From positions 2,270,171-2,334,170 of the forward strand of contig JAWPMW010000001.1 of assembly GCA_033344735.1 (NCBI GenBank): a stretch of DNA of 64,000 bases, written 5' to 3'. The notes below the pieces were generated by a model that was given only the letters and a program-made list of their open reading frames with translations, made no database searches and had not been told where the DNA came from. The DNA comes from Gammaproteobacteria bacterium (GTDB lineage: Bacteria > Pseudomonadota > Gammaproteobacteria > UBA4575). The translations under genes and the position numbers were made by a program. The stretch's first letter is position 1. Each line of letters opens with the position of its first letter. Shown here one piece after another: positions 2,563 through 7,281 of the stretch.

Positions 2563-3477
2563 TTATCTGCTGAGTACTTTGAGTTTAATAAATCGTGTCA
2601 TAGACCATGTAATAATATCTGCTAATAATATTACAATCCTGAAACTTGCAATGATTGCTATAATATTATTTTCATTATGCGTGCTGCATAGATATTTACT
2701 GGCTACATACTCAGTTACTCCCAACCCTTGCGGTGCAAAAATAGTAATAAATCCAGCCCCCCACGAGAATATATATACGCCAGCTGAGTACAATTGAGAG
2801 CAGAATTTCTCTGTATTAGGTAGAGCTTCAAAATAAGATGAGAATGAATACCCTGCTAACAACCAATATATAAATATAATTATTAAGCAGAGTAGATAAA
2901 TTTTTATTGATCTAATCAGTTTTGTACTATTAAAACGGTTAATAAAAAATGGCCACAATATGAAACAAAAAATACTTAATAATAATACTATATTTGTAAT
3001 TATTTGCTGATTCTCATTCTGACTAAGAAGGCTAATTATAAATGCTCCAATGAACAAGGTTGAGGTGGCTATAATTACGTTCTCATGAAATAAATATAGA
3101 CTGATATGCTTCGGAGTAAATCCCATAGAATAGTATTCTTTTGATCTAGCGACTGTATGCCAGATACCTCCAGGCAAGTATTTGGCTGGTAGATGAGATG
3201 TATGGATCTCAAATGCTTGTAAGTAATTTATTTTTTTATCAGTAGTGCTTAAAGAAAGTACCGTGAATAGCGGGGCAATAACATGTAGGAGTATCCATAT
3301 AAGTATCCAAAAAGTTATTTGTAGTACGTTAATAGAAATAAAAAAGTCATAGATGAGACTGCGGGATCCCCAGGCAACGTAAGATAACCAAAATAATATA
3401 AGAGGCGTGTAAACAATTTTTAACGCTTGAAAGACACTTTTTAGATTGGTTGGGATTGTGATGATGTCGGATTGTCC
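2563..3477 (-). CDS. Polytopic membrane protein, putative flippase-like component of glycosylation cassette (start codon unresolved)
   Basis: ORF track calls 2563..3177 (TTG start). The same frame stays open for 100 further hydrophobic, TM-like codons up to the TAG at 3478-3480, with no ATG/GTG/TTG in that stretch. Confidence 0.45.
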   Translation of the reverse strand, partial: GQSDIITIPTNLKSVFQALKIVYTPLILFWLSYVAWGSRSLIYDFFISINVLQITFWILIWILLHVIAPLFTVLSLSTTDKKINYLQAFEIHTSHLPAKYLPGGIWHTVARSKEYYSMGFTPKHISLYLFHENVIIATSTLFIGAFIISLLSQNENQQIITNIVLLLSIFCFILWPFFINRFNSTKLIRSIKIYLLCLIIIFIYWLLAGYSFSSYFEALPNTEKFCSQLYSAGVYIFSWGAGFITIFAPQGLGVTEYVASKYLCSTHNENNIIAIIASFRIVILLADIITWSMTRFIKLKVLSR

Positions 3478-3485
3478 CTAGAAAG

Positions 3486-4352
3486 TTATTGGCTGTTTGT
3501 TCTCTTTCCTGCAATGTAACGAAAGGGAAGCATTAATAATAATAGTATGGCTAAGACGATCTTTTTATATAGAGTTAAGTTTGATTCAATTATGTCCTTG
3601 AAAAGCTCAATGGGTAATCTTGCAAGTGGGAAGAGTTTACCTATTTTCGATGAGATGAGTCCAAATTCTTTGCTTTTATAGCGTATTATTTTGTCGTCGT
3701 AATTGAGTTCATTACGAAATTCTCTTCTCTCCCAATGTGCATTGATTGCATGGATAAAATCGCCAATGAGTGCAAGCCTGCATAGAATAACCATATCTGT
3801 ACCCACAGCGCCGATCGCATTTCTAGCAGCTAATTTATCTCTATTAATAACTCCAAGGATCGGATGCATGTTGCCCCAAAATGTCACAACATATCTAGAT
3901 AAATTGTCTAGCCCCCTAGTGTCAATCCACCCGTATTGTTTATCTTGAATTGGATTATTATCGTGATCAATCCATTTCGATGATCCAAAAGATATGACGG
4001 CATTTGGGTTACTTTCCATTAGTTTCACGCATTCACTTATGTAGTTTGGTGACCAAAGGTCGTGTCCTGAAGCCCACATAAAATACTTGCCTGATGATTT
4101 TTCTAAGACAAAATTAAAATTGTCAGATATTCCATAGTTGATGTCATGTGTATAGTATTTTATTTTTTTATTTTTTTTGGCGAGTTGTTTGCAAATCGAC
4201 TCGGTATGATCAGTCGAGGCATTATTTGAAACTATGATCTCAAGATTTTCATAATCCTGATTGATTAGTGAAGTCAAAGATTCGTGTACAAATTTCTCTT
4301 CATTGTATATAGGCATGCCTATTGAAACTAGTGGCTGCTCTTTACTGTTCAT
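3486..4352 (-). CDS. Glycosyltransferase family 2 protein
   Basis: N-terminal GT-A motif (SIGMPIYNEEKFVHESLTSLINQ...); C-terminal TM segment. Confidence 0.75.
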   Translation of the reverse strand: MNSKEQPLVSIGMPIYNEEKFVHESLTSLINQDYENLEIIVSNNASTDHTESICKQLAKKNKKIKYYTHDINYGISDNFNFVLEKSSGKYFMWASGHDLWSPNYISECVKLMESNPNAVISFGSSKWIDHDNNPIQDKQYGWIDTRGLDNLSRYVVTFWGNMHPILGVINRDKLAARNAIGAVGTDMVILCRLALIGDFIHAINAHWERREFRNELNYDDKIIRYKSKEFGLISSKIGKLFPLARLPIELFKDIIESNLTLYKKIVLAILLLLMLPFRYIAGKRTNSQ

Positions 4353-5266: not shown

Positions 5267-5337
5267 GGTAAAAGAGCACTGTTGAATCAGGATACAATGA
5301 TATAGTTAATTGATATATTTATCAGTATATTATTCAG

Positions 5338-7281
5338 CTAAGACTTGGGTTTTTTTTCAATTGCTAGAGTGACGATTCTTTCCAATTCTGTAAGTTGTGG
5401 AATATTTTCATATATTCTATTTTTATCTTTAGCCCGTTTAAGATAAGGAAGACTCTCTCTCGGGCGATTAAGTGCTAATAATAAATTAATGTAGTCAACA
5501 TAGTTTTGAATTTCGCCGGGATTAATTGCCATAGCTTTCTTCAAATGATGCTCAGCAAGTAATGGATTCATGCCTCGCTGAAGGATAAACTGTGCTCTCG
5601 CGGAATGATATGCTGAGTGAATTACTTCATTTAATTCAAGCCTTTGATTTGATTCAAGCGCATCAAATAAGATTTGTGCAGCGTCAGTTGGCAATATGCA
5701 TGCTTTTTTAGTGCAATCCGTAATTGTTTTGAGTAATTTCACATCACTAATACGTGGAACAGGAGTAGATAATTTGGTCGCCATCCTGTCAATCCATTCT
5801 GGTCTAGCGGGTTCATTTAAGTTATCTGCTAATGCGATAAGCGCTGCTTCTGAAATAATTCTTTTATCTCCAAGCTTCGATGCTATTTCCAGATACTGAT
5901 ATGCTTTGGCTTTATATTCCGTATATCCCGCTTCAACCATGCCTTTATATTCCATCCCCAATGTGTGATTTGCTCTTAGTGAGTTAGGATGATGTTGTAC
6001 TTCAAAGTATGCAAAATTGATAGAATCCGACCACTGATTAGCACGGGAAAAAGTGATTATGCTAAATATTGTGGCCACAATAATAACCAAATAACCTGAA
6101 TAACGTTTAAGTTTGCTTTGATTATTTATTATTGTGCTTAAGAGGCTAATGAATGCAATTATCAAACCTATTGAAGGCAAATAATTCCTATGCTCGTAAA
6201 TCATTTCTAGTGGGATGATAGTTGATTCAATTATATGTCCTATAAAAAACCAGACTATGCCTAGAGATACAAGTGGCATCGTCTTTTTTACGGCTAGGCT
6301 AAAAATCAATAAGACTCCAATAGAAGTAATGCTAAGTAAAGTTGTTATCGGTGAAATTATAGATTCTGATAAAGCAATATCATCATGAAATAAGCCAAGT
6401 TCTTGAATGTTTGGAAATACCAGCCATTTAATATAAGACATGATGACTCTGGCTTGTGTATATAGCCTTTCACTTACTGTGAACTCGCGCGTTTCATAAT
6501 ACCAATTTGACAGGAAAATATTTATATCGTTGCTGAATGTGAAGATTAAGATGGTGACTGATAATGCAATAATGGCAAATAACTGCTTTGAGATATTTTT
6601 AAACTGTTCAGAACGGCTTATTGGATAGAAGATAATGGCCTCTATTAATAGAATAAAAACCGGCGTTAGTGCGGCATTTTCTTTAGAGTAAATCCCGAGG
6701 GTAATAGAAAATATGCATAAGATAAAATAAAGCCAACTAGAATTAGCATTGTTAATAATTTTTAATCTACCAATAAGATAGAATAAAATTGCAAGTAAGG
6801 TGAAAAATGTAGAGAGAATCGCCATTCTCTGTACGATATATGCAACGGTGCTAACATGCAGAGGGTGAACTAACCAAATAAGTGTGACAATACTAGCAAA
6901 CCAGAATGACGAATGATCATGCGTGTTCTTTATAGAAATCTTTCTAAGATTGAAAGTAATGAAAAATACAAGAATACCAGTGAGTAAATGTAGAATTACA
7001 TTTGTTAATTTGAAAGAAAAAGGGTTGTCGCCAAAGTAATAATAATTAAGTGCAAAAGATCCCATGCTTATGGGTCGTTTTAAGGTGCTAGCGTTAGATG
7101 AAGTCGAAGCACGTTTTAAAGAATCTATAGTTAATGATTCAATTTGGACCTTTTCATTAAAAACTAAATTTGGACGATCGTCGTGTAAAAAGTCACCATT
7201 TAATGTAGGCAGGTAAGCTATAAAAGTGACTATCGATATTGCGACTAAAATTAAGGGGATTTTGATGCTAGAAATATGCAT
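5338..7281 (-). CDS. GT-C/PMT-like membrane glycosyltransferase with C-terminal TPR domain (TfpW-like pilin glycosyltransferase candidate)
   Basis: 647 aa; ~11 N-terminal TM helices then TPR-like helical repeats; immediately downstream of pilA. Confidence 0.65.
   Translation of the reverse strand: MHISSIKIPLILVAISIVTFIAYLPTLNGDFLHDDRPNLVFNEKVQIESLTIDSLKRASTSSNASTLKRPISMGSFALNYYYFGDNPFSFKLTNVILHLLTGILVFFITFNLRKISIKNTHDHSSFWFASIVTLIWLVHPLHVSTVAYIVQRMAILSTFFTLLAILFYLIGRLKIINNANSSWLYFILCIFSITLGIYSKENAALTPVFILLIEAIIFYPISRSEQFKNISKQLFAIIALSVTILIFTFSNDINIFLSNWYYETREFTVSERLYTQARVIMSYIKWLVFPNIQELGLFHDDIALSESIISPITTLLSITSIGVLLIFSLAVKKTMPLVSLGIVWFFIGHIIESTIIPLEMIYEHRNYLPSIGLIIAFISLLSTIINNQSKLKRYSGYLVIIVATIFSIITFSRANQWSDSINFAYFEVQHHPNSLRANHTLGMEYKGMVEAGYTEYKAKAYQYLEIASKLGDKRIISEAALIALADNLNEPARPEWIDRMATKLSTPVPRISDVKLLKTITDCTKKACILPTDAAQILFDALESNQRLELNEVIHSAYHSARAQFILQRGMNPLLAEHHLKKAMAINPGEIQNYVDYINLLLALNRPRESLPYLKRAKDKNRIYENIPQLTELERIVTLAIEKKPKS

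Follow-up and report, generated by a model that had tools for sequence, protein, structure and literature searches.

A window of 64,000 nucleotides (nt) from a gammaproteobacterium of the UBA4575 lineage (GenBank assembly GCA_033344735.1, contig JAWPMW010000001.1, forward-strand positions 2,270,171 to 2,334,170) carries four genes on its minus strand between pilA, which encodes the type IVa major prepilin, and pilB, which encodes the assembly ATPase. They encode a membrane protein of 647 amino acids (aa) with C-terminal TPR repeats, two family-2 glycosyltransferases (GT2a and GT2b) and a flippase-like polytopic membrane protein. We consider it probable that this cassette comprises a periplasmic O-glycosylation system dedicated to the pilin and fed by a lipid-phosphate-linked sugar donor. 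An earlier note, made from the sequence alone, had proposed a pilin-dedicated three-component cassette, and the comparison of related loci supported the proposal: in 62 of the 68 loci that could be assessed, the 647-aa family gene is preceded on its strand by a gene with a prepilin cleavage motif, a GT2a ortholog (at least 45% identity) is present in 54 of 69, and a terminator-like hairpin with a T-tail separates pilA from the transferase gene in 47 of 59. The enzyme activities and the acceptor are presumed from this context.

Association of the cassette with pilA

For the comparative analysis, species-representative genomes were scanned with the alignment of the 647-aa family, which retrieved at least 598 relatives, and the best 80 loci were analyzed; individual loci are designated below by L numbers. 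The 80 loci belong to Gamma- and Betaproteobacteria, and their transferases share 30–69% identity with the 647-aa protein. The taxa include Acinetobacter, Undibacterium, Gallionella, Dyella, Rhodanobacter, Frateuria, Cycloclasticus, Sulfuricaulis, Exilibacterium and many metagenome-assembled genomes. In 43 of the 69 loci the GT2a ortholog lies within 900 bp downstream of the transferase gene, and the orthologs located beside the 647-aa family share 51–77% identity. The collinear four-gene cassette recurs in L032, L082, L085, L086 and L087 and is rearranged in L045 and L083. GT2b orthologs (41–58% identity) directly precede members of the fourth-gene family in L032, L045, L053, L082, L083 and L085–L088. 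Two of these loci (L053 and L088) carry GT2b and the flippase-like gene directly after the transferase gene and lack an adjacent GT2a; the pair therefore forms a separable module. Additionally, six homologs of the fourth gene (27–41% identity) were picked by sequence alone and their contigs then looked up, which revealed that all six reside in pilA–transferase islands, each with a GT2b ortholog immediately upstream.

This linkage bears on the possibility that the 647-aa protein is a broad periplasmic protein O-glycosyltransferase, similar to the actinobacterial PMT or to TMTC, for which the pilin would be one target or a co-regulated neighbor. Such an enzyme would fit the huge family of its membrane domain, which counts 51,092 cluster representatives at E ≤ 1e-3 and 5,307 at E ≤ 1e-30 and is unlikely to be pilin-linked throughout, as well as the label "protein O-mannosyl-transferase" given by JGI to several homologs and the ability of TPR domains to bind many partners. 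However, over the whole identity range sampled the gene is nearly always found right after pilA and behind an attenuator-like hairpin, and in many loci each transferase copy is matched by one pilin gene or the copies stand in tandem, as is typical of an enzyme–substrate pair like those of TfpO and TfpW. We regard the broad-specificity explanation as unlikely.

Two or three tandem transferase paralogs follow pilA in 26 of the 80 loci (among them L014, L015, L021, L027, L035, L036, L039, L041, L043, L045, L085, L087 and L088), and some loci harbor two pilin genes. The paralogs hint that the modification proceeds in steps or involves several sugars, or that each pilin variant has its own enzyme. 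Transferase homologs were also detected in many Acinetobacter species, such as A. johnsonii, A. towneri, A. indicus, A. ursingii, A. bohemicus, A. cumulans and A. faecalis, and in Acinetobacter tianfuensis (L033, 7450–12480) pilA, the transferase gene, GT2a and a gene for an MsbA/PglK-like ABC transporter are arranged with overlapping stop and start codons.

The region downstream of GT2a is highly variable among the loci and contains GT4 and GT2 genes, epimerases, Wzx-like or ABC transporters and nucleotide-sugar tailoring clusters. The closest relatives, L001 and L002, illustrate this pattern: PilB is 95% and 91% identical to that of the window, respectively, PilS and PilR 68–79% and PilA 78–82%, the transferase is only 69% and 60% identical, and the gene content between GT2a and pilB differs completely, which marks the island as hypervariable. 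In L001 a true PF03706 protein (E 1.2e-11) is encoded directly after GT2a, and the segment 11785–15553, on the strand opposite to pilA, encodes a GtrA protein (PF04138), a GT2, a 465-aa PMT_2-like protein and a UDP-GlcNAc 2-epimerase; L002 encodes a DUF354 protein before pilB. Downstream of the cassette, most of the loci L032, L082, L083 and L085–L088 carry a divergent gene cluster for an unusual nucleotide sugar, a deoxy-sugar that is methylated or aminated, comprising genes for an NTP transferase, a 4,6-dehydratase, dTDP_sugar_isom, C- and O-methyltransferases, DegT, WbqC, an acetyltransferase and radical-SAM enzymes.

The hairpin terminator that had been noticed in front of the cassette was confirmed by two analyses. 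A terminator scan located a hairpin with a T-rich tail at 7338–7310, between the pilA stop codon and the start of the 647-aa open reading frame (ORF), and the RNA of the 98-nt spacer between these genes folds at −26.6 kcal/mol, with z = −6.5 against dinucleotide shuffles. The stem sequences of the hairpins in the related loci are unrelated to one another. An attenuator is known for the pilin-accessory cassettes of Pseudomonas (PMC11841053), an arrangement that the hairpins described here match, and by this precedent the element of the window is presumed to act as an attenuator.

The prepilin gene itself probably starts at the second ATG, at 7829 rather than 7844, because a GAGGA motif lies 8 nt upstream, the L001 ortholog starts with MKKVQQGFTLIE, and a typical 7-residue leader (MKKVQQG) results. 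PilA had been described as rich in Ser and Thr; the enrichment exists and is moderate, with 16.2% compared with 12.3 ± 2.2% for the other proteins of the window, and 10 of these residues are clustered within 26 positions (mature residues 44–69). In the group IV pilins of Pseudomonas aeruginosa, modification occurs mainly at Thr64 and Thr66 (bioRxiv 10.1101/2020.04.19.049825), which fall inside the range of this cluster when compared by residue numbering, with the pilins not aligned. About 130 nt 5' of pilA, inspection by eye detected the element TGGCAT-N5-CTGAA (7958–7973, minus strand), similar to the sigma-54 −24/−12 consensus (TGGCAC-N5-TTGCA), which fits the expectation for a PilR-dependent promoter.

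The order of the minus-strand genes is pilS, pilR, pilA, the hairpin, the 647-aa gene, GT2a, GT2b, the flippase-like gene, pilB and pilC (table 1), and ORF and Pfam analyses bore out the layout and coordinates first assigned to the four genes between pilA and pilB. PilS and PilR are the likely drivers of cassette transcription; their orthologs in L082 and L086 exhibit the Pfam architectures 6TM_PilS/HisKA/HATPase_c and Response_reg/Sigma54_activat/HTH_8, respectively. The four cassette genes are separated by spacers of 71, 32 and about 20 nt, and pilB is preceded by a gap of 262 nt holding a promoter-like site at 2393–2365, as found in a promoter scan. A scan for internal sigma-70 promoters returned 18 sites compared with 26.7 in shuffled sequences and was uninformative. 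With a GC content of 0.344, the cassette (2563–7281) is the lowest 4.7-kb stretch of the window, the median of which is 0.405. Recent horizontal acquisition was considered as an explanation and rejected: the GC content at third codon positions is similar to that of pilB, pilR and pilS, and therefore the low overall value may reflect membrane-protein composition rather than foreign origin.

Table 1. Features of the pilin locus, numbered from the first nucleotide of the window
Feature	Position	Strand	Evidence and remarks
pilS	9491–11125	−	ORF and translation; two-component regulator, directly 5' of pilR/pilA
pilR	8103–9527	−	ORF and translation; two-component regulator directly upstream of pilA
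pilA, type IVa major prepilin	7380–7844	−	Pfam Pilin E 6.3e-13, N_methyl E 2.7e-10
Rho-independent terminator-like hairpin	7300–7338	−	13-bp stem AAAAGGCGTAGTA-AAT-TACTACGCCTTTT, then TCTTTTGT
647-aa membrane protein with C-terminal TPR	5338–7281	−	ORF; presumed periplasmic pilin O-glycosyltransferase
GT2a, 293 aa	4385–5266	−	PF00535 E 2.5e-32; presumed polyprenyl-phosphate sugar synthase
GT2b, 288 aa	3486–4352	−	PF00535 E 1.2e-32
Flippase-like polytopic membrane protein, ~300 aa	2563–3465	−	Open frame and homolog alignment
pilB, assembly ATPase	582–2300	−	T2SSE E 5.7e-150 and MshEN; downstream boundary of the island
pilC, 5' part	1–577	−	Begins at 577 and runs off the window edge

The 647-aa protein and the two glycosyltransferases

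In the protein collection, over 1200 homologs with lengths near 650 aa were found for the 647-aa protein, with identities of up to 69%. The protein had been described as GT-C/PMT-like with TPR repeats, of which the repeats in the C-terminal third were substantiated: they are weak for the single protein (TPR_19, E 0.0065) and clear at the profile level. The AlphaFold2 (AF2) model (pLDDT 88.5) consists of a first transmembrane (TM) helix, a long loop with short helices, about ten further membrane helices and an all-helical repeat domain. In this model TM1 spans residues 7–27, D34-D35 open a helix at 35–40, two more loop helices cover 52–59 and 70–83, and TM2 spans 87–116. Hydropathy and the AF2 helices together allow 10–12 TM segments and favor about 11; with 11, the predicted topology would place the invariant charged clusters and the TPR domain all in the periplasm.

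The family shares the invariant motif D34-D35-x-x-N38, located 7 residues after TM1, the two Asp residues of which are unchanged in alignments of 33 and of 20 homologs. Further invariant residues are K200-E201, R265/R272/R278, Y283, H299-D300-D301 and H364-R365-N366. A Cys-x4-Cys pair in the TPR domain (C523/C528), invariant across 33 homologs, agrees with a disulfide formed in the periplasm and thereby with a periplasmic position of this domain. In the predicted topology the acidic pair stands at the start of a long first loop containing short helices, which is a layout of the GT-C type, and a GT-C/PMT-like fold is what we infer for the membrane domain. TMTC enzymes likewise carry C-terminal TPR repeats, and the N-terminal pattern F-x-F-D-D-x-x-x-I-x-x-N of the 647-aa protein is one that we take, as a lead, to be TMTC-like.

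The closest counterpart by architecture is TfpW of P. aeruginosa group IV strains (PA7, Pa5196), a protein of 646 aa with 11 TM segments, an essential DDX motif in loop 1 and a periplasmic TPR domain, encoded right after pilA, and tfpW-like genes follow pilA in several genera (bioRxiv 10.1101/2020.04.19.049825). The cassette protein resembles it in its gene position directly after pilA behind a terminator, its length, its approximately 11 predicted TM segments, the DDX motif in the first periplasmic loop and the C-terminal TPR domain. The parallel would extend to the donor, a polyprenyl-monophosphate sugar whose use is presumed here, and to a candidate for a small helper or flippase. We thus regard the 647-aa protein as having a TfpW/TMTC-like architecture and as the presumed periplasmic pilin O-glycosyltransferase.

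The assignment of the first glycosyltransferase to the GtrB/ArnC/DPM1 type held, as all of its nearest relatives, curated or solved, are synthases of polyprenyl-phosphate sugars. GT2a bears a DXD motif (D85-A-D87) and two C-terminal hydrophobic segments (210–228 and 247–273). Its best PDB matches are the archaeal dolichol-phosphate-mannose (Dol-P-Man) synthase DPMS (5mlz, the best of all), ArnC (9bhc, 8vxh and 9hwj) and GtrB (5ekp), and it is 30% identical to ArnC of Escherichia coli. Among NCBIfam models, AglJ, a Dol-P-hexose transferase, PpgS, ArnC and PgfS matched best, all under their equivalog cut-offs; the top score was 131 bits against the 325-bit cut-off of AglJ, and the others were likewise far below. 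GT2a thus belongs to no named equivalog, and the sugar therefore cannot be read off. Its family membership makes it a presumed GtrB/DPM1/ArnC-type polyprenyl-phosphate sugar synthase.

The synthase type of GT2a bears on a further explanation, in which the system would resemble TfpO/PilO/PglL and transfer a pre-assembled oligosaccharide en bloc from undecaprenyl diphosphate to the pilin. In Pseudomonas and Acinetobacter the corresponding position of the locus is taken by TfpO-type genes, and GT4 genes and Wzx-like flippases are frequent in the related loci. Yet GT2a belongs to the synthases of monophosphate-linked sugars, an initiating phosphoglycosyltransferase is missing from the cassette, and Pfam analysis of the 647-aa protein yields the weak TPR match only, with no Wzy_C/O-antigen-ligase domain, so that we consider en-bloc transfer extremely unlikely.

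The second glycosyltransferase was recovered where the earlier note had placed it. GT2b has one C-terminal hydrophobic helix, and its family displays the motif FMWA(S/A)GHD (residues ~90–100), in which GHD occupies the usual place of DXD; it is kept in the L032 and L045 orthologs and may represent an unusual metal- or donor-binding site. The NCBIfam and PDB neighbors of GT2b are glycan-extending GT2s, namely TuaG, PglI, EpsE, WcaA, GalT1 and chondroitin/heparosan synthases. Its role may be to elongate the lipid-linked sugar; alternatively, it may be partnered with the flippase-like protein and synthesize a second donor.

The flippase-like fourth gene

The fourth gene of the cassette is present as first described; its length, given as 204 aa, was not upheld. 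The ORF finder starts that product at a TTG at 3177, and the frame is actually open from 3477; full-length homologs (296–313 aa) align to it continuously and in frame from about 3450 (E 4e-50), giving a protein of about 300 aa. None of ATG, GTG or TTG occurs in its first 100 codons (3177–3477). An alignment with 35 homologs sets the N-terminus at IITIPTNLK, and translation likely starts at an ATC at 3465 or 3462, 9 nt after an AGGGA motif.

The same property was found in the closest homologs, L089 (489–665) and L090 (537–719), which are 57–59% identical and conserve 59–61 codons that lack a canonical start. There the frame opens right after the GT2b stop codon, as TAG followed by ATA and TAA followed by ATA, respectively. 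Comparison of these start-less codons between L089 and L090 revealed 33 identical, 12 synonymous and 14 non-synonymous codons, a pattern of the coding type, and the 100 start-less codons of the window were stop-free in only 45 of 20,000 shuffles. More distant homologs of the fourth gene begin with ATG. A frameshift or pseudogene was ruled out, the frame being continuous and conserved. Together, these observations suggest a genuine gene encoding about 300 aa, the translation of which begins in a non-canonical or termination-coupled manner.

The fourth protein had been called flippase-like, with a match to LPG_synthase_TM (PF03706) as the proposed check, and the two parts of this description fared differently. 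Its AF2 model (pLDDT 90) retrieved MprF at all of the first four Foldseek ranks (TMq 0.63–0.66, probability 1.00), with TMq ≤ 0.28 for the other matches listed. The PF03706 model, in turn, produced no match at E ≤ 1 for the protein itself, which no other HMM matched either, or for its L045 and L032 homologs, and it annotates about 20 of the 120 homologs listed. Alignment of the fourth-gene profile with the PF03706 protein of L001 by hhalign detected no significant relation beyond a PxxxGxxE motif, and the GtrA-family model PF04138 matched none of the four cassette proteins. Invariant motifs of the fourth protein are YLPGGxWH and PQGxGxxE. We conclude that it adopts the fold of the MprF flippase domain as a divergent relative of PF03706, and lipid flipping is the activity that this modeled fold would imply.

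Proposed pathway, its alternatives and known relatives

In the pathway that we propose, pilA would be transcribed under PilS/PilR control and most transcripts would end at the hairpin, with read-through giving low expression of the four genes. GT2a would load one sugar from a housekeeping nucleotide sugar onto undecaprenyl phosphate (Und-P) at the cytoplasmic face, and the ~300-aa protein similar to the MprF flippase would carry the lipid-linked sugar to the periplasmic leaflet. There, the 647-aa protein would move the sugar to Ser/Thr residues of PilA while the pilin is still in the inner membrane, before assembly, using the invariant Asp-Asp after TM1 and other invariant residues of its periplasmic loops for catalysis, with the periplasmic TPR domain holding the pilin. 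This transfer is assigned to the 647-aa protein because of its architecture, its strict synteny with pilA and the analogy with TfpW and TMTC. GT2b may attach a further sugar to the lipid-linked intermediate or provide another donor, which is the least certain step of the scheme. The pay-off would probably be the masking of pili from pilus-specific phages, or surface variation, by analogy with the pilin glycosylation by TfpO and TfpW that defends against pilus phages (PMC11841053).

Several observations weigh against this reading. Most of them concern the 647-aa protein, for which the proposed checks with hidden Markov models (HMMs) were negative: neither it nor the membrane domains of 19 relatives matched PMT, PMT_2, DUF1736 or ArnT-type models of Pfam and NCBIfam at E ≤ 10, and the only matches of any model were to TPR repeats, outside the membrane domain. 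PDB sequence searches with the single protein and with the full profile returned TPR proteins only, and a profile of the N-terminal part returned nothing; all 50 matches listed for a Foldseek search of the full AF2 model against the PDB were TPR proteins as well. By hhalign, family profiles of 33, 20 and 146 sequences reached a probability below 1% against both E. coli ArnT and the PMT_2-like protein of L001, and the alignment with ArnT was collinear but non-significant (residues 78–215 with 71–194 of ArnT). A regular-expression search of 384 family members with more than 550 aa found no instance of the proline motif reported for TfpW homologs, YX6PFX7P; these members exhibit the signature Y-x6-P-x8-HDD-x3-S-x5-P-x-TT instead. 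The published TfpW homolog of A. venetianus (WP_130134296.1) was not among the accessions of the 10 clusters retrieved with the A. tianfuensis ortholog. As regards the other components, the Ser/Thr enrichment of PilA is only modest, GT2b resembles glycan-extending enzymes rather than lipid-phosphate-sugar synthases, which makes its place in the scheme a guess, and the flippase-like gene, having no canonical start codon, could be poorly expressed. The cassette had also been called self-contained. It does encode its own candidates for the lipid-phosphate-sugar synthase and the flippase, but it contains no nucleotide-sugar genes, and the deoxy-sugar genes of the related loci have no homolog in the 64-kb window.

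The failure of every glycosyltransferase HMM and fold search on the 647-aa protein would be expected if it were not an enzyme but a pilin chaperone or assembly factor like TfpY, TfpX or FimB, with the GT2s acting elsewhere, and non-enzymatic accessory proteins do hold the same post-pilA position in other species (PMC11841053). We consider this very unlikely, as the invariant charged clusters DD, KE, HDD and HRN lie in predicted periplasmic loops and resemble an active site, the gene is consistently coupled to that of a lipid-phosphate-sugar synthase, and the size and topology of the protein are unlike those of the TfpY family (170–245 aa).

The lack of a detectable relationship to ArnT bears on a different alternative, namely that the cassette modifies a non-protein envelope molecule, either lipid A/lipopolysaccharide (LPS) or a glycolipid, and resides in the pilin island through a shared role in surface variation or phage defense. 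The 30% identity between GT2a and ArnC would agree with this, as would the GtrA/GT2/PMT_2-like set of the classical kind that L001 holds within the same pilA–pilB interval. Pairs of a glycosyltransferase and an MprF-like flippase are known for glycolipids (HexS and HexF of Clostridioides difficile, a glycolipid synthase and its flippase; PMC10128005), and PplT/MprF-flippase domains are often fused to glycosyltransferases (bioRxiv 10.1101/2022.03.11.483950). However, an ArnT-type lipid A transferase with targets unrelated to the pilin was the outcome that would have spoken against the original proposal, and no similarity to ArnT is detectable. Across two proteobacterial classes the transferase gene is tied to pilA and not to LPS genes, all six fourth-gene homologs picked by sequence reside in pilin islands, and the large TPR domain, predicted to be periplasmic, is of a kind that typically makes protein–protein contacts. 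A non-protein acceptor appears improbable to us.

We therefore return to pilin modification and compare the cassette with known systems, first of all with TfpW, which Kelly et al. 2024 framed as a three-component system. The donor of TfpW is decaprenyl/polyprenyl-P-D-arabinofuranose, made from PRPP via PsPA7_6245-6249 (a UbiA-type synthase and DprE1/E2), usually at an unlinked locus; in the cassette, by contrast, a GtrB/DPM1-type GT2 adjoins the transferase, no D-arabinofuranose pathway genes are present, the helper is MprF-like and not GtrA-like, and there is an extra second GT2. The 647-aa protein is TfpW-like by every architectural test; the likeness is drawn to the published description, one feature of which fails, and the protein is no more than a candidate member of the TfpW family.

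With GtrABC and ArnC/ArnEF/ArnT the cassette would share the logic in which an Und-P-sugar is made by a GT2 in the cytoplasm, flipped by a small membrane protein and consumed by a polytopic transferase in the periplasm. The acceptor in those systems is LPS and here presumably a protein, the pilin; an MprF-type protein stands in place of GtrA (PF04138) or an ArnE/F homolog, and the transferase, unlike ArnT, carries a TPR domain. The pairing of a DPM1-like synthase with a polytopic transferase recalls eukaryotic DPM1 with PMT1/2 or TMTC1-4 and actinobacterial Ppm1 with Pmt, from which the cassette differs in the negative HMM comparisons given above and in being a dedicated operon with a single presumed substrate gene. 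TfpO/PilO, PglL and TfpM share the position after pilA and, presumably, pilin O-glycosylation and phage evasion, but those Wzy_C enzymes move Und-PP-linked oligosaccharides en bloc, and no Wzy_C Pfam match was obtained on any cassette protein. Finally, MprF/PplT (PF03706) and HexSDF of C. difficile resemble the cassette in the MprF flippase fold and the tight pairing with a glycosyltransferase, as in HexF–HexS. Their known or proposed substrates are phospholipids and diacylglycerol glycolipids, whereas the context here points to a polyprenyl-phosphate sugar destined for a protein, and the cassette subfamily is so divergent that PF03706 misses the fourth protein. Judged by these sequence comparisons, the cassette would be a variant of TfpW-type pilin glycosylation, new in its linked GtrB-type synthase, its MprF-type flippase candidate, its second GT2 and the lack of the proline motif. 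Literature searches for a GtrB-linked pilin glycosyltransferase yielded nothing beyond the TfpW papers, and none of the papers in the library searched describes this arrangement.

Pilin glycosylation governs phage susceptibility, immune recognition and pilus behavior, and only two enzyme types at the pilA locus, TfpO/PglL and TfpW, are well studied. We raise, as a tentative and still doubtful generalization, that a TMTC/TfpW-like transferase, a DPM1/GtrB-type synthase and an MprF-type flippase together constitute a widespread, so far undescribed pathway of pilin O-glycosylation in environmental Gamma- and Betaproteobacteria. If so, a third arrangement, namely a TfpW/TMTC-like transferase with a GtrB-type donor synthase and often an MprF-like flippase, would be common in uncultured and environmental Proteobacteria, including many Acinetobacter species, and the D-arabinofuranose TfpW system of P. 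aeruginosa would be the exception. The transferase belongs to a large family (over 5,000 cluster representatives at E ≤ 1e-30), and in the members tested no Pfam or NCBIfam model matches the membrane domain. The variable sugar-tailoring genes that accompany the transferases would point to an arms race with pilus phages. The fourth gene would offer a genetically isolated candidate for the long-sought flippase of lipid-phosphate monosaccharides, throttled by a conserved non-canonical start codon, and the cassette a compact, transferable system for asking what flips polyprenyl-phosphate monosaccharides, a question that is open for GtrA, Dol-P-Man and TfpW.

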